Assembly: GCA_031268535.1 (NCBI GenBank)
Contig: JAIRXB010000033.1
Location: 1,886 to 65,885, forward strand
Length of the DNA stretch: 64,000 nucleotides
DNA from: Puniceicoccales bacterium
GTDB lineage: Bacteria; Verrucomicrobiota; Verrucomicrobiia; Opitutales; JAIRLM01
Direction: 5' to 3'
Below are positions 1 through 56,893 of the stretch, one piece after another. Made by a program: the position numbers and the translations under genes. How positions within the stretch are numbered: the stretch's first letter is position 1; each line of letters starts with the position of its first letter. The notes beneath the pieces are model-generated. The model was not told the origin of the DNA. It was given only the letters and a program-made list of their open reading frames with translations, and did no database searches.

Positions 1-352
1 TGCACAGAGTTATTATTGGCGAATGGAACTTCGAGCTGTGCGCCGCCCCAATGCGGCCGCAGTACTCAACCACACCGGCAGTCGAACAGGCCAAAAAGGA
101 ACAATCCGCCCAATTTATGGCGGAAAAATCTGCACCGATTGACAAATTGCCTGGAAACGCGAATCCAGGCAAATAGTCAAAATTTTCACCGGCCACCCTA
201 GCTGCGTCGGCCCATGGACCATTGCGGGCGACGAGACGAACCTCATGGCCAAGCGACGCCAAATGTAGCGCCATGGCGGTTCCCCACGCTCCAGCACCGA
301 AAATGGCGAATTTCGCCACCGGACCGTTGCATTCGCCTAGAGCAGCAGACAT
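1..352 (-). CDS. gpsA: Glycerol-3-phosphate dehydrogenase [NAD(P)+], N-terminal part; runs off the left edge, so it is absent from the supplied ORF track
   Basis: Own translation of the minus strand from ATG at 352-350: MSAALGECNGPVAKFAIFGAGAWGTAMALHLASLGHEVRLVARNG...AGENFDYLPGFAFPGNL... It has a Rossmann GxGxWG motif and the ENxxYLPG motif typical of GpsA. The frame is open to position 1. Confidence 0.75.
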   Translation of the reverse strand, partial: MSAALGECNGPVAKFAIFGAGAWGTAMALHLASLGHEVRLVARNGPWADAARVAGENFDYLPGFAFPGNLSIGADFSAINWADCSFLACSTAGVVEYCGRIGAAHSSKFHSPIITLC

Positions 353-397
353 TGTGTTGCCCATAGCCATGGGACGTCAACTGGGCAAGCGCATTGT

Positions 398-420
398 GCG
401 CGCCGCCGAAGGCGGCGCGC
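398..420. terminator. Perfect 10-bp GC-rich hairpin between sctR and gpsA; possible terminator or attenuator with no clear U-tract
   Basis: GCGCGCCGCC-gaa-GGCGGCGCGC read directly from the sequence. It lies in the 293-nt gap between the sctR stop (646) and the gpsA start (352). Confidence 0.3.
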
Positions 421-645
421 ACGCAAGCGTCAATTCGCTTCATTTTTTGACGATTTTTCGGCGCAGCCGCCCCAATGGGGCAAACGCAATTATGGCTCTG
501 CGTCCGAGAAAGAACGCCAGAAGGCAGCTGTTTTGCAACTTTTTAGCCGTTGCGCTGCACGCTACGGCTCTTGCACTTGCGGCGTGGACGGCCTACGTGA
601 GCCTTCCGGCCATGAAAATTTTCTCCCCCTAGCCGGACCGAACAG

Positions 646-1311
646 CTAGCGATAGGTAAGCACGAGGCCCTCGATTAGCTTGGACCATCCGTCAGCCAAC
701 ACGAACAGCATCAATTTGAACGGCAAGGAAATTGTCATGGGCGACATCATCATCATGCCAAGCGCCATAAGCACATTAGACACAACAATATCAACCGCTA
801 TGAATGGCAGGAAGAGAAGTACGCCAATTTGGAATGAAGTGGTCAGCTCGCTAACCGTAAACGCCGGCACCAAAATGAGGAAATCGCTGCTGGATATGTT
901 GTTGAAGTCATCCTTTGGCCACAGCCGGGCTGCCGCATTCATGAAAAATGTGCGACTGTTTATGGAGGAATGGCGCAGCAAAAAGCGCCGCAGCGGCTCG
1001 CCAATGCGCTGCAAATGACCCGGCAGCTTCTCTATTTCCTGCAGCGAAAACTCGCTTTCGATGGCGATCTTCATTGTCTCCTTCGCCACCGGAGCCATGA
1101 CGTAGATCGTTATAATTAGCGCTAATCCGTTCAGTACGAGATTTGGCGGAACCTGCTGCGTGCCAAGGGCGTTGCGCACCAAACCGAGGACGATGACGAT
1201 CTTTACGAAAGACGTCACCATCAACATGAAGAACGGCGCAACGCCGAGAACCGTGATGAGGACAATGACCGTAATTGGGTCGTAGGTGAAAAAATTGGCC
1301 GCGGTGTTCAT
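646..1311 (-). CDS. sctR: Type III secretion export-apparatus protein SctR (YscR/HrcR family)
   Basis: The 221-aa ORF is collinear with YscR as I remember it: TSFVKIVIVLGLVRNALGTQQVPPN, LILVPAFTVSELTTSFQIGVLLFLPFIAVDIVVSNVLMALGMMMMSPMTISLPFKLMLFVL. It has four hydrophobic segments and no FliP-type cleavable signal peptide. Confidence 0.9.
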   Translation of the reverse strand: MNTAANFFTYDPITVIVLITVLGVAPFFMLMVTSFVKIVIVLGLVRNALGTQQVPPNLVLNGLALIITIYVMAPVAKETMKIAIESEFSLQEIEKLPGHLQRIGEPLRRFLLRHSSINSRTFFMNAAARLWPKDDFNNISSSDFLILVPAFTVSELTTSFQIGVLLFLPFIAVDIVVSNVLMALGMMMMSPMTISLPFKLMLFVLADGWSKLIEGLVLTYR

Positions 1312-1360
1312 GGTTTTGGCCGATTCTCGATGGAAGCGCTAGACATTCAAGCACCTTCGC

Positions 1361-2170
1361 CTAGCCATTCAATTCAACGATCTGCACGCCAACGCGGCCG
1401 TCTATGTTGACGAGTCGACCGCGACCGATTGGCTGGCCATTGGCCCGTATGGCGACATGTTCATCGTTGGGTCGCTCCAGCGTAAATGAATAGCCCTCTT
1501 TGATGCTCTCAAGATCTCTTAGCGAAATGCGCAACGTCCCAAGATCGAAAGTCAAACTGACTTCTATGGCGCCAACGTCAAACCCCTCCCTCGGCCTCGG
1601 CGCCAATGCCGCATAGGCCACATCCTTCAGCATGGCCTCAGCTCTCTCGTGAATTGGCCAGCTATCGCCACCAATGGCCCCATCACCCATGCCATCACCT
1701 ATGTCGTCACCGTCTCCGTTGTCCACATCTTCGTCGGAAGAATCCTTCTCTTCTTCCTCATCCTCCTCATCCTCAACGACATTTTTCTCTTCCGCCGGCA
1801 ATTTGTCTAAATTTTTCGGAGCATCATCGTCGCCATCCACGCCGTCTGGGGCCGTTCCGTCGGCCACCGCAGACTCGGCGGAATCGTCAACGTCCTCGTC
1901 ATCTTTTTCCTCATCCGAGTCGTCTTCGCCGCCATCGTCATCGTCTTCGGCATCGTCATCGTCTTCGTCCAAATCGTCATCCTCGTCCCAGTCCTTTTCG
2001 TCGTCATCCTCCTCTCCGTCATCGTCTTCGCCAAGTTTATCAACGTCGAGCTCATCGTCATCGGAATCCTCGCCGTCCCCATCCAGCAATTCATCATCCA
2101 ACTCATCGCCATCTTCGGACGAGACATCACCGTGTGCATTTTCCTTTTTTAACTTCGAACCCGTGGCCAT
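1361..2170 (-). CDS. SpoA-domain protein in the SctQ-C / HrcQb position, with a ~170-aa poly-acidic N-terminal region
   Basis: The track ORF is 1361-2239; I start it at ATG 2170 (MATGSKLKK). The C-terminal VSLTFDLGTLRISLRDLESIKEGYSFTLERP..VAIRANGQPIGRGRLVNIDGRVGVQIVELNG looks like a FliN/SpoA fold. The gene lies immediately upstream of sctR. Residues ~14-185 are almost only D/E/G/S. Confidence 0.6.
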   Translation of the reverse strand: MATGSKLKKENAHGDVSSEDGDELDDELLDGDGEDSDDDELDVDKLGEDDDGEEDDDEKDWDEDDDLDEDDDDAEDDDDGGEDDSDEEKDDEDVDDSAESAVADGTAPDGVDGDDDAPKNLDKLPAEEKNVVEDEEDEEEEKDSSDEDVDNGDGDDIGDGMGDGAIGGDSWPIHERAEAMLKDVAYAALAPRPREGFDVGAIEVSLTFDLGTLRISLRDLESIKEGYSFTLERPNDEHVAIRANGQPIGRGRLVNIDGRVGVQIVELNG

Positions 2171-2340
2171 GATAAGTTCCTTCGCGCCCGCGCAATAGGC
2201 AAGATGTGAGCAGTTTACGGCGCAGCGGCCACGACGCAACAGGAAAATCTCACAAAGAATTCCACCGGCGCCGCCGGCGCCAAAAATTCAAAATGAAACG
2301 CACCGTTTTGGAAAATCGGCCACGTCTCCAAAGACTTATG

Positions 2341-2418
<78 letters not shown>

Positions 2419-7273: not shown

Positions 7274-8803
7274 TCACCGTATGCTTCTCATCACCGCATC
7301 GAGCGTCTTTGCGGCCTTCCTTGTTTGTTTTAGCTGCCATTTGTCGCACTCTCCACCTTTAACGGTCGCTTCACCAACTGCGCGCCGGTAAAAGGAAGCG
7401 GCTCGACTTGGGAGCCCATCAAGGTCTCCCGACAATAGCCGTTTACACATTTGGCCAGCGGAGGCGCGCAATGAATTTATAATTTCAATGATCCCGTTCA
7501 ATGCGTCGATGTCGATGCGTTCTCCGTCGGCAGATATGACGTCGCGCTCGTAATTGCGCGCCATTTCATTGGGCGCCTTCGCCAAGCATAGGCACAGCGT
7601 GGAGCCGCCTTCGAAGTTGGGACAGTCAAGCGAACAAAGCCGCCGAAAGAAATACTCATCCACGCAGCACGTCCCATCACCGAACGGCTCAATGGGCCCT
7701 CGCGGTTCACGCGCCGAAAGTCTGAAGCAACCCAATTGATCGCCGAGAGAGATATAAAAGGAACTGTGGAGACATAGAACTTCGCACTTTAAAATGGCCA
7801 CAATGTCGTCCTTGGACAACTCGCGGCACTCGTCACTGCCACAATAATGCTTTTGTATGAGATCGCCAACGGCACGACCTCCCTCCGTGTCTTTTTTTTG
7901 CAGCCAAAAATTATAGGCCCTGTTCACATCGTCGGTGGAAACCAAACTTGAAAACAGCTCATCCACAGAAAAGCTAGTTTCTTCTCTCCGTTCGTCGCAC
8001 AAAGCGCGGAATGCATAGGCTTTCCCATGGAACTTTCGGCCGTCATTTTGAGCATTCGTCACGGCGTCAACGTAATCCAAAATCGCAAAAAACCTCTGGG
8101 CGTCGGCTTCCGAAAAACTTTCCGCCGCCACAACGGTGTCGTCGGCCACTTTGGAAACAGCACGGACGGCCTCGGCAAATCTTGTGATGAACTGTCCGTT
8201 CGCCTTCGGGCAGCGGAATTCACCGCCACTAATGGAACGACTCCACCACGCCGCTGGAGCAATTTCTGCGTCGGCGCCGATGGCTCGCTTCAGCGCTTTG
8301 AGCTTTTCTGGATCCTTGACGCAATCCAAAATAATGCGCCCAGCGGAACTTCCGTCGCGTTGCCCTGCAGTGAAAATTCTGTTGGCATAGCCCTCCAGGA
8401 CCGCCTCGACATTTTCAGGCGCCATGCGGGCGCTTTTGCTTCCCAGTCTTGCTGCGTCCTCCACAAAACCTTCGGCCTCAATCATAAACTTAATAATACA
8501 TAGGCCGAGCAGCCAAATCAGCAAAATTCCGCCTATGGCCATTGAGACCCAAAAGGCGACCTTCTGCGCATCCGTAATGGTCGTACCGCAAAACTGCGCC
8601 ACCATCGGTCCAAACGCACCTTTTTTTGCCAGTTCGCAAAACTGCGGCTCCGTAACATGGCGAAGCAATTGCCCGCTATCGCTAACGTAGGTTTTATGCA
8701 GCATTTTGCCTATGGCGCCGCCGGCAACATAGTTAACTATGGCCGCTTCTGATGGGAGATGAAACATCTTTTCACATACTGCATATCGCCAATCTTTAGT
8801 CAA
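7274..8803 (-). CDS. Hypothetical Cys-rich protein with one ~27-residue hydrophobic segment near the N-terminus; candidate secreted or membrane-inserted protein
   Basis: A 509-aa ORF with no motif I recognise. The hydrophobic stretch is VAFWVSMAIGGILLIWLLGLCIIKFMI at about residues 83-110. The architecture resembles the 14303-15925 family. Confidence 0.45.
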   Translation of the reverse strand: MTKDWRYAVCEKMFHLPSEAAIVNYVAGGAIGKMLHKTYVSDSGQLLRHVTEPQFCELAKKGAFGPMVAQFCGTTITDAQKVAFWVSMAIGGILLIWLLGLCIIKFMIEAEGFVEDAARLGSKSARMAPENVEAVLEGYANRIFTAGQRDGSSAGRIILDCVKDPEKLKALKRAIGADAEIAPAAWWSRSISGGEFRCPKANGQFITRFAEAVRAVSKVADDTVVAAESFSEADAQRFFAILDYVDAVTNAQNDGRKFHGKAYAFRALCDERREETSFSVDELFSSLVSTDDVNRAYNFWLQKKDTEGGRAVGDLIQKHYCGSDECRELSKDDIVAILKCEVLCLHSSFYISLGDQLGCFRLSAREPRGPIEPFGDGTCCVDEYFFRRLCSLDCPNFEGGSTLCLCLAKAPNEMARNYERDVISADGERIDIDALNGIIEIINSLRASAGQMCKRLLSGDLDGLPSRAASFYRRAVGEATVKGGECDKWQLKQTRKAAKTLDAVMRSIR

Positions 8804-19118: not shown

Positions 19119-20764
19119 TCAGTCTAGGCGTTCTTCTTTCAGCTCTTCGAGCTTATTTAAAGCGTAGCTAGCCGTCGCGAAACCGCCGCTAAATCTCGCA
19201 AGGGGGCCTACGGTTGATCCACTCGCCCACCTACTACCGCTAAGCTTATCCCAGCCTTTACCTATGCACAGGTTGCGAACAAATTCTGCCTTCTCCCCTA
19301 GCCCGCCAGTGGTTTTGCCACTTGCCGCTAAAGCTCCAAGCATATCAACGAGTGCAGCAACGACATCCGCGACTAAGTCAATGCATGAAGCTCCTTCCGG
19401 TGTGCGCGAAAGGCGTCGCCCACTAACACAATCCTGCACCTCAAATTTGCCGCCAACCTCATTGATGCGATTGCTAAACCCCTAGCGTCAGCCTCTGAGA
19501 GCCCATCCCTAACAAGTCGCACAATAAGTTCCTTGCATGCATCTCCGCCTCCGCCGGATCCGACTGCGGCCGCCATGAAAGCCGCAACAAATGGATCGGA
19601 GTCGCCGAAATAGTCCGTACGCGGATTTTCTGAAAATGCCGCTTCAAGCGCCGCAACAACGGCTGCTACCGGATTGCATCCGGCGCCAAATACAGCCGCA
19701 ACACGACCTTGAAACTGAGGAGCGCTCAAAACAACTGGAATCATGGCGCCGCAAACTCCTACGACTGCTTTACTCAAGAATGATTTCTCATCAGGAGAGC
19801 CTCCATTCTTCGCATGCCAGGCGGAACCCGCTTCGCCATCCATCCATTTGAGAGCCGATGCCGCAGCGCGAATTCCCATTCTAACCTTGGCTTCTTCGCA
19901 AACCAAGTTAAAAAACAGATTGAGAAGCTCTTCGTCATCTTTGGTGAATGTTTTACTTGAATCGCGAAAGTTAACTCCGCATCGCAAGCCCAAAAACTCC
20001 CCAAATAAATCATGGAGAACATTATGGCGAGATTTGCCGACCCCTTTGTAGAGTGGCGCTAAATGATACTGCAACCCCATTCCGTTAATATCGTAATCCT
20101 GTTCGCCAGGCTTACGACTGTTACAACACCAATAGGCCTCCCCCAGAATTTTTCCCTCTTTCATTTCCGCACCAAACGGGCCATGTATCCCCATGGCAAT
20201 TGCGACAAACGTTTCGCCGATGCTTTCTTGCCGCTGAGACCAATCGCCTCTTCGCTTAACAAAAAATTTATCGGCTAGCTCCTCAATGCGCTGGAAGCTG
20301 GAGGTGGGAGCGGTAAATTTAGCACTGTCAGCTACCACCTCCTGCTCCTGCAGTTTAACACTCTCAGCTACCACATCATGCTCCTGCGGCTGAGATGGAG
20401 CTTCCTGCGGCCGATATGTAGTCGGTGTCTGGGCATAAATTTCTCTGGCGAGCTGCGCAATTGGGTTGGTCCATGTATTCATGGCTAGCGCAAAATATAT
20501 GACAGCCGCTACACATGCGAGGCCGAGCGTTGCAATGGAGACAGCTGCAATTAAGCAGGCGAGCGGCAGATCTGGCCCATCGTAGATGATTTCAGCAGCT
20601 GCGCTTCTTCTGTTTTTTTCGCAAAAATTCTGAATAGCCTGTCCGTCGCAAACGAAATTTATAAGGAAGTGCGCCGTTACGGCTTGCAGGAGACTCATTC
20701 GCGCCAATGCCGGTTGAACGGAGGCATGTGATTCAGTTTTTGATTGCGGTAGTGCTGTATCCAT
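19119..20764 (-). pseudogene. Paralog family A, second copy, split by a frameshift near 19480-19486 (ORFs 19373-20764 and 19119-19439)
   Basis: The 463-aa ORF matches copy 1 up to ..LIVRLVRDGLSE and then diverges. The overlapping 106-aa ORF in another frame resumes the homology (..FEVQDCVSGRRLSRTPEGASCIDLVADVVAAL versus FELQDYVDGQSLSSTAKGVLCIDLIADVVAAL). Confidence 0.7.
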
Positions 20765-21008: not shown

Positions 21009-21150
21009 ACGTCAAAACCAACGTTTCTCTTGCCGGCCAACTCACTCAGCCTCCAAGCCGACGCTGCAAAATAGCTAATGGCAACGCTATCCGTTTCCAT
21101 CGGCGATCGCTCCGGCAATTAGGACGGTGGCTCCGATCGCCATTGGCGCC
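21009..21150 (+). repeat. Second copy of the last ~110 nt of the lipoprotein gene plus the lipoprotein/rsmE junction; copy 1 is 17153-17283
   Basis: Collinear match, for example ccaacgctatccgtttccatcggcga(c/t)cgctccggcaattagg(g)acggtggctcc. Confidence 0.65.
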
Positions 21151-22561
21151 AATCGGGGAAATCGGGATTTTTCCTCAGCCACCCTATGTGCTCGGCTGCC
21201 ACGTCGCAGGCGATGGGCGTTTCAAATAGCTCTCCACCATCGTGCCGTTTCTCGAAGATCTCCACAACTTGCTCCTCCAGCTCACACATCGTAGAGCCAA
21301 GATGCTTTGCGGGAAGCTGCTCAATTAGCCACAGCGCATAGTTGCGGAGAATCACAATGGCGGCTTCGCACGCACCAATGTTTACGGCAACGTAGCCGTC
21401 TCCATTTGCGCCAATGTCCGCAAATATCCAGCCGACAATGGCGTCCAAAAGATCTGCGCCGCCGTAAATCGCCGCAAAGGTGGTGGCGAGCAGCGCCTCG
21501 CCCTCAAAATCAAAACCAATCAAAGCGGCGGCGGCGATGTGCCTGTAGCCGCTCAACAGATAGCCAAGAACAGCAGTTGCCGCACTGGAGGCCATAAAAG
21601 TCACCTCCCGCAAATGCGGCGCAGTGTCACACCTACTAACGGCTTCGCGGATCTGATCAGACGCAATGCAAATCTCTTTGAATGCAGTCCACAGACGCAC
21701 GCACTCCGGATCACCGCGCAATGCCGCCATGAAATTGCCAAGTCTTTCGCGCAACAGCTCTTTCGCCGCTTCCGTTGCAAGTCCGGCATTTGGCACTACG
21801 ACAACGTGCCATCTGCGACTTTCGCCGGCCTCCGCCAACGCAGCGACGGCCCTTTCGTGCTTTTCCACTTCCCCCTTCTTGAGAGTGAACAGCCTCCCGT
21901 CACGGGCGCGCAGCGCCACTGCGGCTATGCGCTGGGGACTGTGCGGATAATCGATGGGCCAAACGATGTCTCCCCTGTCGTAGTGGATCAGGCCGTGAAT
22001 CAGCACTACGGCGCGCACGTCTCCACGATAAATGACACCGTCGGCGTCTATGCTGTAATCTCCGCTTTGAGTTCTGACTATGACGTCCGGTTCGATAAAA
22101 TATATATCGGCTCCAAGTTTACCGGCGATTATCCGCACAAGAGCGGCCTCAATCAATTTGTTGGCGGGCAACGCAATACTATTGCCTCTTTCCGAAAAGC
22201 AGCACTTCAATAGCTCCATCCCATTTGCGCCCATTGGCGATCGCCCAAGGTGGAGCGATTTCTGCCTAAGGTAAACGGCCGGCTGCTCCGGCGCAATTGG
22301 AGCGGCAACCCTCCGCAACAGCAGATTAAACATCCACGCTAAAAGCTTAAACTTGCGAAGCAGAGTTGCTTGGGCAACGGCGCCAGGGAAAAGCCAATAG
22401 CACCATGGCGACAATCGCCCGAAAGCCGCAGCATTCAGCAGCACACCATGGCTAACCGCGCGTCGCAATAGGGACGGCAATTCGCCCGTCGCACCGTCGT
22501 CGGCGGACGCCAAATCAATTCCGCAGCTGCGGAAATATACCGCCATCGGCCCAGCGTACAT
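21119..22561 (-). CDS. Hypothetical ~480-aa protein; start uncertain
   Basis: A long ORF. The track start (22729) would overlap prmC by 160 nt, so I prefer ATG 22561 (MYAGPMAVYF). No domain recognised. Confidence 0.45.
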   Translation of the reverse strand: MYAGPMAVYFRSCGIDLASADDGATGELPSLLRRAVSHGVLLNAAAFGRLSPWCYWLFPGAVAQATLLRKFKLLAWMFNLLLRRVAAPIAPEQPAVYLRQKSLHLGRSPMGANGMELLKCCFSERGNSIALPANKLIEAALVRIIAGKLGADIYFIEPDVIVRTQSGDYSIDADGVIYRGDVRAVVLIHGLIHYDRGDIVWPIDYPHSPQRIAAVALRARDGRLFTLKKGEVEKHERAVAALAEAGESRRWHVVVVPNAGLATEAAKELLRERLGNFMAALRGDPECVRLWTAFKEICIASDQIREAVSRCDTAPHLREVTFMASSAATAVLGYLLSGYRHIAAAALIGFDFEGEALLATTFAAIYGGADLLDAIVGWIFADIGANGDGYVAVNIGACEAAIVILRNYALWLIEQLPAKHLGSTMCELEEQVVEIFEKRHDGGELFETPIACDVAAEHIGWLRKNPDFPDWRQWRSEPPS

Positions 22562-22565
22562 ATCA

Positions 22566-23402
22566 TTATCCCCGGCAAATGAGAAACCGCTCATGGCCAT
22601 TAAAGTCACAGAAAACTTGCGGGCGCAGCCCATTCTGCTTCGCCAGCGAAGACAGAACAGCGCCGTGGCCAATGCCCATCTCCAAAGCCAGCATTCCGCC
22701 GCCATTGAGGTGCCCACCGGCATGGCCAATAATGGTTTTCAGCGCATCGGCGCCGTCGGCGCCTCCTCCCAGCAGCGCCAACGGCGGATCTCCGAGGCGC
22801 ACTTCCGGCGAAGAATTCTGCCACTCTTCTTCGCTGAGGTAGGGCGGATTCGACAGGATAAGGTCCCATTTGCCATGCAGCTGCGAAAACCAATCGCTGC
22901 ACACGAAATTGATGCGGTCAGCCATTTGGCAGCGGTCCCCATTCCGCTTCGCCAGCGCAAGAGCTTCGAGTGAAATGTCGCTGGCAGTTAACGTCGCGGC
23001 CGGAAAGGCTTTCCCAATGGCCAGCGCACATGCTCCGCAGCCGGTGCCGAGATCCAGCACAGATTTTGGCGGATTTTTGCTGAGTCGCTCAACGACAATC
23101 TGCACCAGCAACTCAGTCTCCGGACGCGGAATAAGTGCGGAAGGCGACAGAAGTAAATCGACGGCACCGAACGGACAGCTGCCAAGTATGTGCTGCAGCG
23201 GCACACGGCGGCAGCGCATGGCAACATACTTTTCCCACAGCTCCAGTTGCCCGGCCGACAGTGGGCGCTTTCCAGTTAGGAATAGATCCGCGCGGCGAAC
23301 GGCGAGAACGGCGGCCATAATCCACTCCGCATCGGCCCTCGGAAATTCGACGCCGGCCTCCAGCAAAAGGCGCTCTCCCTCGTCTAGATGTGCGGTTTGC
23401 AA
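22566..23402 (-). CDS. prmC: Peptide chain release factor N5-glutamine methyltransferase
   Basis: SAM-binding motif VLDLGTGCGACALA and catalytic NPPY (ILSNPPYL). Confidence 0.85.
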   Translation of the reverse strand: MQTAHLDEGERLLLEAGVEFPRADAEWIMAAVLAVRRADLFLTGKRPLSAGQLELWEKYVAMRCRRVPLQHILGSCPFGAVDLLLSPSALIPRPETELLVQIVVERLSKNPPKSVLDLGTGCGACALAIGKAFPAATLTASDISLEALALAKRNGDRCQMADRINFVCSDWFSQLHGKWDLILSNPPYLSEEEWQNSSPEVRLGDPPLALLGGGADGADALKTIIGHAGGHLNGGGMLALEMGIGHGAVLSSLAKQNGLRPQVFCDFNGHERFLICRG

Positions 23403-26147: not shown

Positions 26148-27026
26148 TCAAGCGCCATCCAAATCGGAATCATGGCTCTCCAGCGCCGTAAGGTAGAGCC
26201 TGACGCATGGGCCGTCGGCCAAACGCTCCCTAATGAGAATGGAGTCACCGTCGGCGGAAATAAATTCGTAGTCGCGGCCGCCATGGCTCACCGAGTCGCC
26301 GATGCCGTTGGCTTCGCAGTGCAGCGGTCCGCCAGCGGAAATGGAGACGAGCTTTGCGCGAAATTCCGTGGCAGCAGCGGCTCCGTCAAATGGGAGCCGA
26401 TAGATTTTTCCGTCGCTCCAATCGCGCACGGTGGCGCAGCGGGAAAAAATTTCTCCGCAAAGGAAGTTGCAGTTCTCCAGCGAGAAGAGCCCATCCTTCG
26501 ACCGCTGCCCGGAACGCAGCGCATGCAGCCTGCCGGTCTCGCCGTCGCGAATGAAGGCGGACACGGACCCGTCCATGCTAACGGCAAAGCCTTCCATGCG
26601 CAGGCGATAGGGAATTTCCTCCAGGTCAATGAGGTGAAGCGATGCCGTAGCGGGATCTTTCACGCGAAAGGATCCGTTGTGCAGCTCGACCGTTGGCGGC
26701 GTAAAAAGGTCACAGGGAAGAGCTGATCCGTCACCGTCCCTGTTGGGGGCAGGCCACATGGACTTTGGCAGTTCGGAGAACTCAGTGGACGGCTTTGGCC
26801 TGGAGATCTGAGGTCTATTTCCGTGGTCCGCATGCATCTTCCGAACGCGCACACACCTAAATGCGAACGCGGCAAAAAAAATCATCATTCCGCCGATCAG
26901 CAGCAGCACAACTCGCCGGACCAATTTGCTAATTTGCGTGCACACGGTGCGCCTCCCGAGAACCATTGGCGCGTCTGACGCCTTTTCCCGCCAAAACGCT
27001 GTCGTTTTCCTCCAATTTTGGGACAT
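26148..27026 (-). CDS. Hypothetical membrane-anchored protein, third gene of a PilM/N/O-like cluster
   Basis: One TM segment (VVLLLIGGMMIFFAAFAF) is followed by a beta-rich domain. Same strand as, and directly downstream of, 26929-27852, with a 98-nt overlap using the track starts. Confidence 0.35.
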   Translation of the reverse strand: MSQNWRKTTAFWREKASDAPMVLGRRTVCTQISKLVRRVVLLLIGGMMIFFAAFAFRCVRVRKMHADHGNRPQISRPKPSTEFSELPKSMWPAPNRDGDGSALPCDLFTPPTVELHNGSFRVKDPATASLHLIDLEEIPYRLRMEGFAVSMDGSVSAFIRDGETGRLHALRSGQRSKDGLFSLENCNFLCGEIFSRCATVRDWSDGKIYRLPFDGAAAATEFRAKLVSISAGGPLHCEANGIGDSVSHGGRDYEFISADGDSILIRERLADGPCVRLYLTALESHDSDLDGA

Positions 27027-27852
27027 GGACCCACTCCATGACGATGGAGAATTCCGCCGGATAGGAATTTACGACGACCGACTGGGCTGTAGCTCCGCGC
27101 TGAGCGGCCTTCGGCGAAGAAATTATAATGTTATGGGGCACAACCGGCATCAGGTTGTCCTCGATGGCATTCATAAAATTGCGAAAGGTGTCGGTTTTGC
27201 TGCGGAAGCGCAGACGAAAAATGTGCGAATCAACGGCCAGCAGCTGCCGCACGGACGGCACCGCAGTTCCGTCGAAAAAGTCATTGCGGCAAGTCGTTAG
27301 GTCGCGCTGCAAAACGCTCTCTCGCTCAACGCCAATGAAATATAAATCGCCGGAGGAAGACTCGAAAAGCAGCTGCAGCAGCGCCGCAATTTCGAGCAGC
27401 TCGCCGTAGTCCCTGTTGGCGATAGCCTCCCCCACGTGCCCCCGCTGCAAAATGTCAGTAAAGCCAAAATAGCCGTCCCCGCGCAGCGCCACTTTGAATT
27501 TTTTCGCTAGCGCCCTTAGCTTTTCAAATGTGACCGTCAGTTTGTCGGCAAATTCGCCAACATTGCCAATGCGCCCGCCGCTAGCGGAAAGCTCCGGCCT
27601 CGTGCGTATGGACACTATGGATTCCAGCACATTTTTATCGGCATTGAGCTGGGCAGTGAGCCATGGCAAATCTGACAAGCTCCTGCCGTCGTTCTCCTTG
27701 CGGAGCAACAGCAGCTCCCTGCGCGCCACTTCCAGTCGGCCCGCGATGGAGCGATTTCCGCCAGTAATCAGATGGGCCAAAAGGCACGCAAATGTCACCA
27801 TGGCCGCAATTAGCAGCAGTGAACCGTAGCGTCTCATGCACCTGCTTCCCAT
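26929..27852 (-). CDS. PilO-position membrane protein resembling Akkermansia Amuc_1100 as recalled from memory
   Basis: An N-terminal TM segment and a coiled stretch. FADKLTVTFEKLRALAKKFKVAL..GYFGF...ELLEIAALLQLL and FRNFMNAIE line up with my recollection of the Amuc_1100 pattern (F..L..F...L....KK.., ..AMNAI..). Not verified. Confidence 0.4.
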   Translation of the reverse strand: MGSRCMRRYGSLLLIAAMVTFACLLAHLITGGNRSIAGRLEVARRELLLLRKENDGRSLSDLPWLTAQLNADKNVLESIVSIRTRPELSASGGRIGNVGEFADKLTVTFEKLRALAKKFKVALRGDGYFGFTDILQRGHVGEAIANRDYGELLEIAALLQLLFESSSGDLYFIGVERESVLQRDLTTCRNDFFDGTAVPSVRQLLAVDSHIFRLRFRSKTDTFRNFMNAIEDNLMPVVPHNIIISSPKAAQRGATAQSVVVNSYPAEFSIVMEWVHVPKLEENDSVLAGKGVRRANGSREAHRVHAN

Positions 27853-27861
27853 GGCTTACCC

Positions 27862-46414: not shown

Positions 46415-46514
46415 ATTGAAGTTTTGCATAAATTGCGTTGCCCTAGATCAACTTGGCCATTTCGCGCTCGAAATACTTTTACATTTTTGCCAATTTTGTC
46501 AAAATTGGGCTGCC

Positions 46515-49500
46515 ATGATTGGAGGTTCATCATACTTTTCAACTCTTATGCAGGGCGCGAACGCCTTTAGGCAGACAAGCTCAAGAGCTCTTGCCGCAGC
46601 CCTAGAAAGAAAACCGAGGACTCATCAGGGACAGACAGTTGAAAAAATAAAAAGTGCCGTGTCTTCCAATGAAGCGGAAATCGTCAACGCCTTCGAGAAA
46701 AAAAATATTTTCATGCGGGGCCTCGCCATAGCATTTAGCTGGGCCGCCGAAATTTGCCACCAAGATGCGGCCGTTAGCGAAATGCTCGCAGCGCTCGATG
46801 GAGACGAAAATGCAATCCACTCACAATCTGGAGTCATGTCGGCCGCGAGCACCATCATCATCAGCACCATAAAAGCTTGCCGCGAAGCGGAATCTAAAAC
46901 GTTTGACACCGTCAGGAGCGCGATGGGGAGATCCGGGCTGAAAGATACACCTTTCAGTGTGCAAAAAATAGGGATGGCTGGACACCAATGCGCCCGCCTA
47001 TCCGACCTGATTGCGTCCGCCATAATTGCCGGAAAAATTAATATTAAAGACCTCTCCGACATAGTGCTTCCCCGTAGGAGCGACCTGGAAGAGCAACGGC
47101 GAAATCTCAGCACCTGCGGATTGTCGCAACAAAGCGACACAAGCCCATCGGAAACAGCATTTTTTGAGCGCCTAGGGGAGGTTTTCCAGTTGCCTGCCGG
47201 TGTCAGACTGACAACTGCCGACGGACACCCGCCGGAATTATCGGGCTGGGTGACATTTGCTGTCGCCATCGCCGAGCTGGCTGGAGCGCACGGCGCATTT
47301 GCAAGCATCGTGACGCAACTAAAAAACGACTTTGCAGCCAAAACGCCGGAAGTTTATGGCCGCAGCGCCGCCGTCGCAACCGAAGCTGCCAATGACGTTA
47401 TGACGGCGCCGGCCAATGGCTTTTCTGGCGGCACCGTCAACTTCGAAGCGCTCAGCTCATTATCACAAGATGAAATCAACGCCGCCGTTGGCGACGTGGC
47501 AAATTGTTTGCATAATACTTTTGGCGTCGAAATTGATGAAGCCCATATCCGCGACGTGGCACTGGGATCCGTCAGCGATCGGCTTCGCGCTGGATGCTTT
47601 GCCAAAGACACCGCCGTTAACGATAGCGATGACTCTCATGAACTAGATCCTGGAGAATTTAAAAGTGGTGACGATTTCATTACGGCGGAATACGCGATTG
47701 CTCTCGGCCGCATCGGCTTTGACGAAAACAGCATCACTAAAATTAACGAAGAGAAGTCCGCTGGAAAATATAACGCAAATTTAGCCAAAACACTTGCTTC
47801 CGCCATAGGCATTTTGCGAAATGCAGCAAAAAATGCAATTTTACAGCACAGAACGCCTGGGGGACAAACGGTTGCCGATGTGGCCGCAGATGTGCGCGCC
47901 GATGGGATGGTGGAAAACCTTAGCGCCATCGACGACACCACAAAAACACTGCTCGCAAACGTTGAAGCGGCGACAGATATCGCCGAGCAGGCGGCGGCGG
48001 CCGCTCCAACTGGACCAAGCATCTCAACCGTCAGCACAAAAGCTGAAACGCGCACCGTAATAGTAGACGCCATTGCGCAGCAGCGCATAAAGCAATCCGC
48101 CGCCACCATTGTGGCCCTCTTCGGCGCCGGCAACATTTCCGACACAACCTTCGCGCAACCCATCACCATCATGGGCGTTAAATGCCACAGGATTAGCGAA
48201 GCGGTTTCCGTGGCCATCGTCCACGGCGGCGAAGAAATCAGCGGGAAAATAGCCACCCTGCTTGAGCAACATAGGGCAGGGCAACAGCGCACCGCCCACG
48301 GAAACAGCACGCTGCTGGACGACCTAGTCGAAGCCATTGGCCTCAATGGGGAGAACGTAACGCTGCGCCCGGCCGACCCGGCAAAATTTAATGGCGTAAG
48401 CATCGCCTTCCTTGAGGCGTTCGTAGCCATTTCAGCCGCCTACGGCCGCGTAGACGAAAAAAACATCAGCTGCGAAAAAGATGCCGCCAAAAGGGGGGCG
48501 GAGCAGCTTGACATCAGTGGCGAGAATAAATTTGCCGCAGCCATAAGTTCGGCGGCATCTGGCCTCGCCGGATCCGCCTACGGCGCACTGCGTGGCGATC
48601 GCAAGGCGGAAATTGACAGCCGCCTGACAGCTTTTGTAAATGCCATTTCCAGAACGCTGGATGACGACGGAAGAGAACAAATTAGTCAAATCGCCGGCAG
48701 CCAATTCTTCGACCCATTCTTTTCCCGCTGGGCTCTGAACGGCTTCTGCGGAGACATGCCATTCGAAATTGGCATAACATCCATCACATCCACCCGCACA
48801 GGACAATATAGGCTGGGAGACATTTTTGCGCTCATCGGCGCACAATGCCCCTCCGGCATGGAGAATAGCGCAATTAGCGCCACAGACACGGCGGCAATTT
48901 GCTCTGCCGCAAATGAATTCCGCAAATCCACCATGGCCGCCATCGGAAAGTGGACGACCGCCTACGGCGAAAAAAACTTCGTGGACGTCTACCGCAAAAC
49001 CTACATCGAAAATCTCGGCGGCAATCATAGCTCCTTCATCGACGAAGTGGCCAATAGGCTCCAAGAAACCTTGGACAAATTTCAAAGGGCGGCGAACCAA
49101 GGCGCTTTGGCAACAGATGCTGGCGAAAAAGAATTCATCGGCAGCCGCCAAGAAGCAGCGGCGGCGATTGGCGAAGAAAACGCCATCTATAGAGGACTCT
49201 TCACCGCACAGTATGGCGATCAGCCACCGCCAAACAAAAAACTTGTAGATGGCTGCGCGCTATTTTTGGACAAAGTCGGCCTCGAAAACGAAACTTTTGG
49301 CAAGCCCATCATGTCCGGCATATATTTGTGCTCGAATGCGGCCGAACTAATTGCCGCCATACTCATGCGTAGCTATTCACTTGGCGGCGTTTTTGAAGGC
49401 GCAATGAGTGACTCATTGCTTGCGGCGCTATCTCCGGAAGATTGGTCGAGACATCTGCTGGGCGACAGCGGAAACGTCAGGCTGCACCCCAAGAAGGGGA

Positions 49501-50234
49501 AAACAGCCCTATCCATTTCCGATCTTAGGGCCGCCAGACCGATCATGGCGAAGCTTGCCGCCATATCTAGAAAAATAAACGAAGCGCACAATGAACGTTT
49601 AGACGCAATGAAAAGTGAGGAAAAAGCCGCAGGGAAAATCAAAAAAAGCGGAGCCGAAACCGTCGAAAGCGCGCGGGGCTTTGGCGGTTTCAAAACCAGC
49701 CAAAATCCATACGGCTTGCTGGCCGGCACGAGCAGGAACGAAGCTGTGGATCGGCTGCGCGATGGCGCCAAAAAAGCCAGAATTACGCTATCGGACAAAG
49801 ACATTGGCATAATTCTATCGCACAAGGCATTGGAGGTCAGAGATGCCATGGTCAAAGGGAAGCTCTACGGCAGGATCTCGTCGATCTTCGACGCGTTTAC
49901 TGGCACCTCCGAGGCAAGGAGCCGCGATGTCTTTGATATAGCAATCGAGGACGACAGCATAACGCTTCAAGAGTTTTTTGGGCGCTATGGGATATATGGA
50001 ATCAGCGGAAATGTCGTGCTAACCAAGAAGCAAGCCAATTCACTGCGAACGACCCTAATGAACCCAATACGCAGCTTGCTGCATGAAGGACTGCTAGAAG
50101 TCGACCTCGGAAATGGCAGGACGATCGTAGAGAACCATGGAGATGGAGAGGCAATGGTGCGCATTGAATGCCGCAAGAAAGCGCTAACGGCCAATAGGGA
50201 ATTGATGCGACTATTGGACGAACTCTCGGAATGA
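46515..50234 (+). CDS. Giant (~1240-aa) hypothetical protein with at least three internal repeat modules; candidate secreted effector
   Basis: Starts at ATG 46515 (MIGGSSYFSTLMQGANAFRQTSS). The repeat cores are FSVQKIGMAGHQCARLSDLIASAIIAGK, FAQPITIMGVKCHRISEAVSVAIVHGG and FGKPIMSGIYLCSNAAELIAAILMRS. No TM segment and no recognisable domain. Confidence 0.55.
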   Translation: MIGGSSYFSTLMQGANAFRQTSSRALAAALERKPRTHQGQTVEKIKSAVSSNEAEIVNAFEKKNIFMRGLAIAFSWAAEICHQDAAVSEMLAALDGDENAIHSQSGVMSAASTIIISTIKACREAESKTFDTVRSAMGRSGLKDTPFSVQKIGMAGHQCARLSDLIASAIIAGKINIKDLSDIVLPRRSDLEEQRRNLSTCGLSQQSDTSPSETAFFERLGEVFQLPAGVRLTTADGHPPELSGWVTFAVAIAELAGAHGAFASIVTQLKNDFAAKTPEVYGRSAAVATEAANDVMTAPANGFSGGTVNFEALSSLSQDEINAAVGDVANCLHNTFGVEIDEAHIRDVALGSVSDRLRAGCFAKDTAVNDSDDSHELDPGEFKSGDDFITAEYAIALGRIGFDENSITKINEEKSAGKYNANLAKTLASAIGILRNAAKNAILQHRTPGGQTVADVAADVRADGMVENLSAIDDTTKTLLANVEAATDIAEQAAAAAPTGPSISTVSTKAETRTVIVDAIAQQRIKQSAATIVALFGAGNISDTTFAQPITIMGVKCHRISEAVSVAIVHGGEEISGKIATLLEQHRAGQQRTAHGNSTLLDDLVEAIGLNGENVTLRPADPAKFNGVSIAFLEAFVAISAAYGRVDEKNISCEKDAAKRGAEQLDISGENKFAAAISSAASGLAGSAYGALRGDRKAEIDSRLTAFVNAISRTLDDDGREQISQIAGSQFFDPFFSRWALNGFCGDMPFEIGITSITSTRTGQYRLGDIFALIGAQCPSGMENSAISATDTAAICSAANEFRKSTMAAIGKWTTAYGEKNFVDVYRKTYIENLGGNHSSFIDEVANRLQETLDKFQRAANQGALATDAGEKEFIGSRQEAAAAIGEENAIYRGLFTAQYGDQPPPNKKLVDGCALFLDKVGLENETFGKPIMSGIYLCSNAAELIAAILMRSYSLGGVFEGAMSDSLLAALSPEDWSRHLLGDSGNVRLHPKKGKTALSISDLRAARPIMAKLAAISRKINEAHNERLDAMKSEEKAAGKIKKSGAETVESARGFGGFKTSQNPYGLLAGTSRNEAVDRLRDGAKKARITLSDKDIGIILSHKALEVRDAMVKGKLYGRISSIFDAFTGTSEARSRDVFDIAIEDDSITLQEFFGRYGIYGISGNVVLTKKQANSLRTTLMNPIRSLLHEGLLEVDLGNGRTIVENHGDGEAMVRIECRKKALTANRELMRLLDELSE

Positions 50235-55433: not shown

Positions 55434-56063
55434 GTGCGCATAGTGCATTTCATTTGCGGCCCAATCGCAAACAATTGCTACCTCGCCGTTCGCGACGGCG
55501 AATCGGTCCTCGTCGATGCCCCCATCGGCAGCATGGCCAGCTACGAAAAATTCACAGAAACTAGCGCGAATGAGTTGCGCGGCCTGCTGCTCACCCATGG
55601 ACACTGGGATCACATGGCGGAAGCGGCCCTTTTCCAAAAAAAATATTCGGTGCCCGTCTACGCAAACGAAGGCGACCTGCCAATGCTGCTAAACCCTGAT
55701 GCCATGAGAAGTTACTCGGTCCCCGCCGTTGAAATTCTCCCCTGCCGGCCGGACGTGGCCGTCTGCGACGGAGACAAACTGCAACTGCTTGGTTCCGAAT
55801 GGATTGTCCGCTCCGTGGCCGGCCACACGCCCGGCGGCGTGGTATACGGCGTGGAGGATGAAAAATTGCTCTTCAGCGGCGACTCTCTCTTTCGCGGAAC
55901 GGTCGGACGCAGCGACTTGCCGGGCGGCAACGGCGAATTGCTGATTGAGCAGCTGCTGGAGCGGGTCATGTCGCTGCCAGACTGGGTTAATGTGCTTCCC
56001 GGTCACGGACATACGACAACCATAGGGGAAGAAAGGCGCCACAATGGCCACTTAAAACTCTAG
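55434..56063 (+). CDS. MBL-fold metallo-hydrolase (glyoxalase II / YcbL-like)
   Basis: THGHWDH motif, HTPGG, and a C-terminal PGHG. Confidence 0.8.
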   Translation: MRIVHFICGPIANNCYLAVRDGESVLVDAPIGSMASYEKFTETSANELRGLLLTHGHWDHMAEAALFQKKYSVPVYANEGDLPMLLNPDAMRSYSVPAVEILPCRPDVAVCDGDKLQLLGSEWIVRSVAGHTPGGVVYGVEDEKLLFSGDSLFRGTVGRSDLPGGNGELLIEQLLERVMSLPDWVNVLPGHGHTTTIGEERRHNGHLKL

Positions 56064-56893
56064 TGGCGCAAGTAGCCAATGACCGTCATTTTATCGCCGT
56101 TCTGCCTACAGCGTAGGCAGTAGGGAGAGAGCCCTATGAGATTTCGAATCCCCATTTCAATTTCGTTGGTGTTTTCCAAAAGAATGACATCACCAACGCG
56201 CAGATCAGCCACCGCATTGCGGGGCATCTCCAGCGCCGCCACGGCATTTATGGTGCGCGGAACGGCCGCCTCGTGGTACCTATAGGGGACAACTTCCTCC
56301 GCGCGAACCGCATCCAAAATTCTCTCCATCAAATTGCGATCCATGGAGAGCATGCCCGAAATCACCAATGGCACACTTTCGCCGCAGTGGGGATTTTTTT
56401 CGTAGATGTGAAATGAGACGTGAAACGGTAGGGAGCGGCGGCGGTGAACGCGGTGCAGGGCAACGTTTTCCACCGTAGCGGGAGCGCAAAGCCAGCCCTC
56501 CAGCGTTGAGAGGAGCGGATCGAGGAGCGATTCCACCAAAATTTTTTGCACGTCGGCCGGATAGATTTCGAAAGCCATTTTGCGCAGCCGCTCATCAAGC
56601 AGCGCACACGATGAAACAGACTCAACCCCAATGCGCATGGCCACATCGCCAACGCGCAAATCCACAGATGCGCCGCAGTCAATTGGAGTGTCGCCGCGCA
56701 ACACCAGGAAAAGTTCGCGGCCAAAATAGGAAACGCGCACAATGCGCGCCCTGTAAAAAACTTCATTGTTGAAATCAACAATCCACTGGGACATTTTTTC
56801 GGCGGCAAGGGAAATGGCCGAAATGGCCCTTTTGCGTTTCGCAGCGGGAGTTTTTTCGGATTTTGCGCGCGCGGCGCCGCTCTGCTGCGTCAT
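56060..56893 (-). CDS. sctQ: SctQ-like cytoplasmic-ring (sorting platform) protein
   Basis: It is the fourth gene after sctN-O-P. The C-terminal AVADLRVGDVILLENTNEIEMGIRNLIGLSPYCLRCRQNGDKMTVIGYL is SpoA-like. 277 aa. Confidence 0.5.
   Translation of the reverse strand: MTQQSGAARAKSEKTPAAKRKRAISAISLAAEKMSQWIVDFNNEVFYRARIVRVSYFGRELFLVLRGDTPIDCGASVDLRVGDVAMRIGVESVSSCALLDERLRKMAFEIYPADVQKILVESLLDPLLSTLEGWLCAPATVENVALHRVHRRRSLPFHVSFHIYEKNPHCGESVPLVISGMLSMDRNLMERILDAVRAEEVVPYRYHEAAVPRTINAVAALEMPRNAVADLRVGDVILLENTNEIEMGIRNLIGLSPYCLRCRQNGDKMTVIGYLRH

Follow-up and report, generated by a model that had tools for sequence, protein, structure and literature searches.

A stranded sctQb-sctR pair and a distant sctN-O-P-Qa fragment point to an inherited, scattered injectisome in Puniceicoccales

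Introduction

That injectisome genes lie scattered is a textbook trait of the Chlamydiae, also noted in a few other intracellular bacteria; in Chlamydia trachomatis, cdsL-R-S-T lie together, as do cdsN-O-P-Q. In Verrucomicrobium spinosum, which serves here as the reference for gene order, C-D-x4-J-K-L-N-O-P-Q-R-S-T-U form one block. We analysed a 64-kb stretch of DNA from a Puniceicoccales bacterium (contig JAIRXB010000033.1; hereafter the window), at the start of which a gene for a SpoA-domain protein (sctQb) and the export-gate gene sctR stand as a pair, and in which an sctN-O-P-Qa fragment lies 54 kb away on the same (minus) strand. Compared with its relatives, the window probably holds part of an inherited, scattered Ysc-like injectisome that apparently works, rather than one that was recently broken or is in decay.

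All Chlamydiales, and also Hamiltonella, are known to have dispersed injectisome loci (PMC3459982). The termite-gut 'Nucleococcus cluster' comprises verrucomicrobial endosymbionts of protists, which were described without mention of a T3SS (type III secretion system), and the Organicella paper names the same cluster, with no T3SS. Our literature search for Puniceicoccales together with type III secretion found no paper.

Results

The window genes are of the injectisome type

Read from high to low coordinates, the minus strand at the window start carries fabD, tRNA-Glu(UUC), a GC hairpin, the SpoA gene, sctR, a 293-nt gap and gpsA (Table 1). An earlier model-made annotation from the letters alone (the sequence-only reading) had described a full-length YscR-like sctR preceded by a SpoA-domain gene, with gpsA as the next gene after the gap; Pfam and NCBIfam searches bore out the pair, down to the coordinates, and an NAD_Gly3P_dh_N match confirmed gpsA. 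The two genes of the pair are separated by a 49-nt spacer. SctQb consists of a variable region rich in aspartate and glutamate followed by a C-terminal SpoA domain, and the SctR translation contains the Met-rich loop MALGMMMMSP, which we take to be the conserved SctR/FliP gasket.

The same reading had placed an N-O-P-Q fragment 54 kb away. Its sctN, sctO and sctP were recovered by Pfam, and only the fourth gene did not hold up as a Pfam-detectable SpoA gene (no match). Within this fragment the start of sctQa overlaps the stop of sctP by 4 nt, and the true start of sctN is probably the ATG at 59501 (444 amino acids, as in relatives) and not the TTG at 59537, because relatives align from residue 13.

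Since Pfam FliP and FliMN_C are common to flagellar and injectisome systems, the window genes might in principle be what is left of a flagellar export machinery (FliI-FliJ-FliK ... FliN-FliP). In tblastn searches the window ATPase was indeed 48–52% identical to Opitutaceae loci taken as flagellar, versus 44–48% to injectisome-looking proteobacterial loci, neither group having been checked with family models. The family cut-offs already contradict this explanation and leave it with next to no probability. SctR covers positions 2–202 of the 202 in the yscR model TIGR01102 and passes it with 262.4 bits (cut-off 208.6), as it passes NF009438 (282.7, cut-off 179), while its 199.6 bits against the fliP model TIGR01103 stay below the cut-off of 217.45; SctN likewise passes NF005391 (754.6 > 657) and TIGR02546, and falls below the cut-offs of all three FliI clade models. 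Because the injectisome equivalog models were passed, those of FliP and FliI were failed, and the YscO and HpaP matches of the neighbouring genes agree, we classify the window genes by sequence as injectisome-type, not flagellar. The relatives described below, moreover, have YscK, YscD, needle and SctI genes, and the homologous cluster of V. spinosum has a secretin and sctD. On NF004578, which we take to be the chlamydial SctN model, the window SctN scored only 341.8 bits (cut-off 604), which would place the window proteins outside the chlamydial Cds subfamily.

Both break points are shared with relatives

Relatives' loci, drawn from assemblies and metagenome bins, are designated here by L-numbers, and the tight clade is represented here by L001–L013, found through SctR (n = 13), and by L100. 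These 13 loci closest to the window SctR all come from Puniceicoccales metagenome-assembled genomes (MAGs), with SctR identities of 74–86%; matches in the protein searches bore the names Puniceicoccales or Opitutales, and the isolate names of the MAGs suggest a termite-gut origin of the clade. In a large protein collection, 22 SctR clusters were found at ≥69% identity, followed by a drop to ≤59%, the level of other Puniceicoccales, Opitutales and V. spinosum. SctN was represented in that collection by more than 120 clusters at ≥70% identity to the window. V. spinosum itself is 69% identical to the window in SctN, 56% in SctR and 42% in SctO, and the best Chlamydiia SctR that we found is 44% identical to that of the window, as against the 56% of V. 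spinosum.

The layout of the window departs from a canonical operon in two places: no S-T-U follows sctR, and Qa adjoins sctP with Qb-R elsewhere. N-O-P-Qa-Qb-R is contiguous in eight clade members (L005, L006 and L008–L013), although detection failed for sctN in L009 (at its contig start) and L013 and for sctP in L010 and L013. Because these eight keep the genes together, the cut between Qa and Qb is real. It is also common to five of the window's closest relatives: tRNA-Glu stands directly before Qb-R in L002, L003 and L004, as it does in the window; sctR is followed by the housekeeping gene gpsA in L001, with 67% amino acid identity; and in L100 (SctN 87% identical) N-O-P-Qa runs into unrelated DNA, without Qb-R. 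Beyond the T3SS genes themselves, synteny among relatives does not extend into the flanks.

The other cut reaches further. In none of the 13 clade members is sctR followed by sctS, sctT or sctU, and sctS and sctT are absent within ±10 kb of sctR. Nor does sctS come after sctR in three distant verrucomicrobial lineages, where Qa-Q-R is followed by a pilin-like gene (L084) or by unrelated open reading frames (ORFs; L085), and O-P-Q-R by an IS630-type transposase and then sctD and needle genes (L088/L089, GWF2_51_19-like). The 251-aa gene after sctR in L084 was considered as a divergent SctT and rejected, having a prepilin-type N-terminus and no match to the SctT hidden Markov model (HMM). The transposase (HTH_Tnp_IS630 + DDE_3) at the R|S break occupies 9942–10364 in L088 and 10821–11698 in L089. 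J-K-L-N-O-P lie apart from Q-R in L081 and L087. In Verrucomicrobia bacterium GWF2_51_19 (L082/L083, 10001–11323), sctN stands alone between proS and unrelated genes, the most extreme fragmentation that we saw.

These comparisons show that the cut after sctR is old, being common to the whole clade and to other fragmented verrucomicrobial lineages; that the Qa|Qb cut is younger and common to the window's closest relatives; and that the J-K-L-N-O-P|Q-R split and the lone sctN are lineage-specific. The sequence-only reading had taken N-O-P-Q-R-S-T-U as the ancestral order, for which the V. spinosum block (SctR 56% identical) now provides the reference, and had proposed an ancestral operon broken between the two SpoA genes and again after sctR. 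With V. spinosum and the eight contiguous clade members at hand, this is right as history. What it implied about a recent or private break is not supported: the same layout recurs in L001–L004 and L100, and sctR is terminal in 13 of 13 relatives.

A private rearrangement, or a chimera of assembly, is suggested by the probable nature of the contig, which is most likely metagenome-derived, as all of its relatives are metagenome bins, and by the contigs of L001, L003 and L007, which end close to sctQb or sctR and hint at assembly difficulty near the acidic low-complexity region. Such an origin is contradicted by the recurrence of the same junctions in independent assemblies from different samples (L001–L004, L100) as well as by the terminal position of sctR throughout the 13 relatives, and we consider it extremely improbable.

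SctQ appears to be split between two genes

A profile built from 11 Qa homologues aligned to residues 6–259 of V. spinosum SctQ, a single protein of 346 aa (hhalign probability 96%, E 3.7e-9), and the Qb family aligned to residues 240–345 of the same protein (probability 98.5%). Qb matched TIGR02551 (SpaO_YscQ) at model positions 198–300 only; Qa had no match in Pfam or NCBIfam, and its C-terminal part gave no more than a weak alignment with the SpoA profile of Qb (E 0.003, probability 11%). Qa lies directly before sctQb in eight relatives. As the two families align to adjoining parts of one protein, they are best read as the halves of a split SctQ, Qa corresponding to its N-terminal two-thirds and Qb to its C-terminal third. 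The cut in the window falls exactly between them. Because the closest contiguous relative of the family has an unsplit sctQ, the split probably arose independently of that into HrcQa and HrcQb.

The acidic low-complexity region of sctQb is about 150 aa long (window 1660–2110, minus strand) and N-terminal to the SpoA domain. Qb varies between 220 and 290 aa among relatives, several of whose contigs end near this region.

The gap after sctR holds a hairpin and no sctS

The sequence-only reading had argued that the gap between sctR and gpsA could not encode an SctS, and this was upheld by homology searches. None of its three minus-strand translations offered a fitting frame. With an SctS/FliQ HMM (41 sequences) applied unfiltered to the translations of all six frames, the window gave no match (best E anywhere 1.2), unfiltered HMMs for SctS, SctT, SctU and SctV had no match there, and tblastn with V. 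spinosum SctS, SctT and SctU returned nothing from it. The three-frame translations, the unfiltered HMMs and the V. spinosum SctS search together also rule out an sctS relic in the gap. One nuance, in view of the earlier statement that no minus-strand ORF of at least 60 aa lies in the gap, is a 66-aa minus-strand ORF (243–443) that reaches into the gap from gpsA, which it mostly overlaps out of frame; it had no SctS match and by eye does not resemble a membrane protein.

The perfect 10-bp GC hairpin described for the gap was also found (398–407 / 411–420, with the mRNA-strand loop UUC / cUUCGg-type), its stem extending to 12 bp. The gap RNA is more stable than shuffled sequences (z = −3.66). 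On the sctR/gpsA strand the hairpin at 396–422 is not followed by a U-run, and it is absent from the minus-strand terminator list of the consensus scan; it could be a stabiliser of the mRNA 3′ end or an atypical terminator. As a conserved element it was rejected: the window gap aligns only in patches to that of L001, which has the same sctR-gpsA junction and has not kept the hairpin, and no Rfam family matches it, the tRNA being the sole Rfam match in 1–2700.

Promoter-like elements precede both fragments

A promoter-like element, TTGCGT-N16-TAAACT, lies 41 nt before the start of sctQb. In L001–L004 such elements precede sctQb by 1–43 nt, and in L010, where the operon is unbroken, by 68 nt; these loci provide five of the seven pattern matches in 204 kb of searched strand. 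Three matches to a relaxed pattern occur in the window (0.36 expected), and two of these immediately precede the T3SS fragments. We regard the element at 2212–2239 as the probable promoter of the Qb-R unit, and the terminator-like hairpin at 2263–2279 would separate the tRNA transcript from it. Upstream of sctN, a conserved promoter-like CTTGC...N17...TAGnAT (window 59499–59545, minus strand; compared in L005–L012 and L100) ends 6–10 nt before the start codon in seven relatives, and this short spacing suggests a very short or absent leader.

Constraint on the stranded genes and the search for missing components

All six T3SS genes of the window are intact and full length. The ratio of non-synonymous to synonymous substitution rates (dN/dS) of sctR was 0.04–0.08 between the window and L001–L004 and 0.009 between L002 and L004 (dS ~1.1), with 0.06–0.07 for the SpoA domain of Qb, 0.03 for sctN and 0.17 for Qa; all of these values are approximate, as synonymous sites are near saturation, which is one of the points that weigh against a working system. 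Among relatives, SctN and SctR are 83–87% and 74–86% identical, compared with 43–67% for neighbouring housekeeping proteins. Judged from these alignments, purifying selection acts strongly on the stranded genes. In L005, a second block convergent with sctR contains sctD, a needle-like gene, a tetratricopeptide-repeat chaperone, sctI, ispG, sctJ, sctK and sctL; sctD, I, J, K and L exceed their Pfam cut-offs, and the sctF-like gene falls just below its own. Because this block adds D, F, I, J, K and L, the clade has at least 12 injectisome components.

Several further observations count against the proposed working, scattered system. The window, to which negative results on gene content apply here, lacks detectable sctS, T, U, V, C, J, K, L and D. 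From the ancestral place of sctJ-K-L, upstream of sctN, these genes are absent, and a non-conserved ORF (orf246) is found instead. The definition of the promoter motif came after inspection of the sequence, and one match by itself carries no significance (23 of 100 shuffles). Finally, S-T-U were not located in the tight clade by SctU searches, all of them limited by rank. The search with the V. spinosum SctU protein gave no Puniceicoccales names among its best 120 matches. An SctU profile (V. spinosum and related matches) was run against 50%-identity representatives, where among the 30 of 150 whose names were read one, P0364, was Puniceicoccales-named, and a metagenome scan with P0364 yielded only three distant loci. 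The contigs of P0364 (L093, L095) carry a stand-alone module of sctS (90 aa), sctT (264 aa) and sctU (360 aa), located after gatB-tatD and before unrelated genes that include one for a 1645-aa ankyrin-repeat protein. ClpP from a P0364 contig is 74% identical to that of L081 and 64% to that of the window, and the module probably belongs to a sister lineage and not to the tight clade.

Some by-products of these searches may be recorded here. In L081 (13042–16175) the gatB-tatD pair points at the end of the J-K-L-N-O-P block, and in L093 (1834–4153) it leads directly into sctS-T-U; a common ancestral neighbourhood and an inversion may lie behind this. P0361/L097 was rejected as a clade member, being from an unrelated organism (SctR 39% identical); at 839–11080 of L097, 7 kb separate an isolated FliP/SctR-like gene from S-T-U, with five unrelated genes between, one of them for a flagellin. 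Four proteins of 609–619 aa (P0452, P0457, P0479 and P0487) have an SctU/FlhB domain at about 265–612 after an extension of about 260 aa that starts hydrophobic, and look like SctT/FliR-SctU/FlhB fusions.

The sequence-only reading had left the system as either scattered in the Chlamydia style or decaying. Decay would mean that the injectisome is being lost in a reduced genome, with S, T, U, J, K and L already deleted, and the absences listed above, the non-conserved ORF upstream of sctN, the rapid evolution of Qa and sctP (50% and 37% identity to L100) and the failure to locate S-T-U in any tight-clade member would all fit. We nevertheless consider it unlikely: the six window genes have intact frames, SctN and SctR retain their high identity despite the divergence of housekeeping proteins in at least 13 relatives, sctR dN/dS has remained at 0.009–0.08 after the break, L005 holds sctD, F, I, J, K and L, and sister lineages keep an intact, separate S-T-U module. 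The scattered alternative is fitted by the two loci of the window, by the junctions common to L001–L004 and L100, by the L005 block that stands apart from N-R, and by the separate J-K-L-N-O-P, Qa-Q-R and S-T-U modules of sister lineages.

A working system might also do truly without canonical SctS, SctT and SctU in this clade, its export gate being built differently or borrowing components. We know of no T3SS or flagellum that works without the SctR5-S4-T1 gate and SctU/V. This explanation would account for the finding that sctS follows sctR in 0 of the 17 fragmented loci examined and for the lack of a tight-clade SctU among both the best 120 matches and the 30 named representatives. It is very unlikely in our view, as searches limited by rank could easily miss a tight-clade SctU and a Puniceicoccales MAG does have S-T-U. 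In the scattered, inherited system that we favour, S, T, U, V and C are presumably encoded elsewhere in this genome.

Further features of the window

The features of both T3SS loci are collected in Table 1. The uncertain gene orf246 occupies the place of sctJ-K-L in V. spinosum and sister lineages and is not conserved in relatives. It was rejected as SctL, SctK or SctJ, a BLASTP comparison with SctL giving E 1.8 and HMMs for J, K, L and D finding nothing in the window. By its hydropathy profile, about 70 aa at the C-terminus are hydrophobic; in L005 an ORF of 550 aa that is unrelated to it and lies upstream of sctN (46–1698, plus strand) likewise has a long hydrophobic end, and the two tails have a putative likeness to chlamydial Inc proteins.

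Other neighbours also recur near T3SS genes. The ispG gene lies just upstream of the sctN block in the window (60948–62444) and between sctI and sctJ in L005 (10458–11921), positions that may go back to the ancestral neighbourhood. A gene for a metallo-beta-lactamase-fold protein (55434–56063, plus strand) abuts sctQa, and in L008 (12249–12902) it comes two genes after sctR, positions consistent with a history of inversion around the operon end. The ORF adjoining tRNA-Glu before sctQb in L004 (7124–8251, minus strand) resembles a phage capsid protein by eye and might hint at integration at the tRNA.

Among the housekeeping genes of the window are many large ORFs (290–1272 aa) with no Pfam match (7274–8803, 14303–15925, 16052–17257, 19373–20764, 21119–22729, 26148–29547, 33106–38259 and 46416–50234), of which those at 19373–20764 and 14303–15925 are paralogues with 42% identity. 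Given an injectisome in the same genome, these large ORFs are candidate effectors. Large ankyrin-repeat proteins are encoded near T3SS genes in the relatives L082 and L093.

Table 1. Coordinates of the T3SS genes and adjoining features in the 64-kb window
Feature	Position	Strand	Evidence and remarks
gpsA, 5′ part (glycerol-3-phosphate dehydrogenase)	1..352	-	Pfam NAD_Gly3P_dh_N 2.2e-14; start at 352, runs off window start
Non-coding gap sctR-gpsA, 293 nt	353..645	-	Three-frame translations, HMMs, tblastn, Rfam
GC hairpin, 12-bp stem	396..422	-	Sequence; in minimum-free-energy and centroid folds
sctR, export-gate subunit, 221 aa, full length	646..1311	-	Pfam FliP 1.4e-67, full model; last gene of unit
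sctQb, SpoA gene	1361..2170	-	Pfam FliMN_C (PF01052) 3.2e-16, residues 199-267, 59.4 bits (cut-off 23.8)
Promoter-like TTGCGT-N16-TAAACT	2212..2239	-	41 nt before sctQb start
Terminator-like GC hairpin with T-rich tail	2263..2279	-	Consensus scan; just downstream of tRNA-Glu
tRNA-Glu(UUC)	2341..2418	-	ARAGORN; Rfam tRNA 58.6 bits; directly upstream of sctQb
sctQa, 277 aa	56060..56893	-	hhalign to V. spinosum SctQ; last gene of N-O-P-Qa fragment
sctP, HpaP/YscP-like length-control and substrate-switch protein	56890..57630	-	Pfam HpaP 8.8e-06; Flg_hook weak
sctO (stalk)	57642..58154	-	Pfam YscO 1.1e-23
sctN ATPase	58167..59537	-	Pfam ATP-synt_ab + T3SS_ATPase_C
orf246, gene status uncertain	59627..60367	-	No Pfam/NCBIfam match; upstream of sctN
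TTGCCG-N17-TAAACT element	60374..60402	-	Just upstream of orf246

Discussion

We propose that genome rearrangement divided a V. spinosum-like cluster into several modules, each transcribed separately. Two of these would lie in the window, namely sctN-O-P-Qa, perhaps headed by orf246, at 56060–59537(–60367), and sctQb-sctR at 646–2170 between tRNA-Glu and gpsA. Transcription of the Qb-R module would start from a promoter-like element of its own, immediately downstream of the tRNA-Glu terminator, and its products, the sorting-platform SpoA subunit and the export gate's SctR pentamer, would be provided in trans to components whose genes lie in other places. Had an internal promoter already stood in front of Qb before the cut, it would have made this break tolerable. 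Such a system, we infer, is functional and serves a host-associated lifestyle.

A broader proposal is that host-associated Opitutales and Puniceicoccales (the 'Nucleococcus cluster' and its kin) fragmented a V. spinosum-type cluster independently of the Chlamydiae, passing from a contiguous cluster through two to four modules to single-gene islands (the sctN of GWF2_51_19), with an ancient, universal sctR|sctS cut and with SctQ halves 54 kb apart under their own promoters; our belief in and doubts about this wider history are evenly balanced. If true, it would be a natural experiment on the co-regulation and stoichiometry of a machine of about 20 genes without an operon. The scattered layout seen here is an independent case for asking why the operons of large machines come apart in host-restricted bacteria and how co-expression persists, with the contiguous relative V. 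spinosum and several intermediates on hand for comparison. It also flags uncultured Puniceicoccales as likely effector-secreting symbionts or parasites. For genome annotation it carries a caution, as a stranded sctR is no evidence of a dead system.

Among known systems, the V. spinosum cluster is of the same protein family, and its gene order explains every fragment in the window and in the relatives; it is contiguous and has a single sctQ, whereas the window has a split sctQ, cuts at Qa|Qb and R|S, and no J-K-L upstream of sctN. In Hrc systems the genes for HrcQa and HrcQb stay adjacent. As in the Hrc1-type system of Pseudomonas syringae, the ring protein of the window is encoded by two genes, the second being essentially a C-terminal SpoA domain; unlike HrcQa and HrcQb, Qa and Qb lie 54 kb apart and Qb has a long acidic N-terminal extension. 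The window resembles the Chlamydiales in having an injectisome of the Planctomycetes-Verrucomicrobia-Chlamydiae (PVC) superphylum with core genes in several loci among housekeeping genes, a scattering conserved clade-wide, and the ankyrin-repeat proteins and many orphan ORFs of relatives and window may suggest a comparable host-associated setting. It differs from them in keeping Q(b) and R together, in the separation of R from S-T-U and in its T3SS subfamily. Hamiltonella defensa offers the parallel of an otherwise clustered injectisome that became fragmented in an intracellular symbiont with a rearranged genome (PMC3459982), to which the window adds a case from a different phylum and a different T3SS family.

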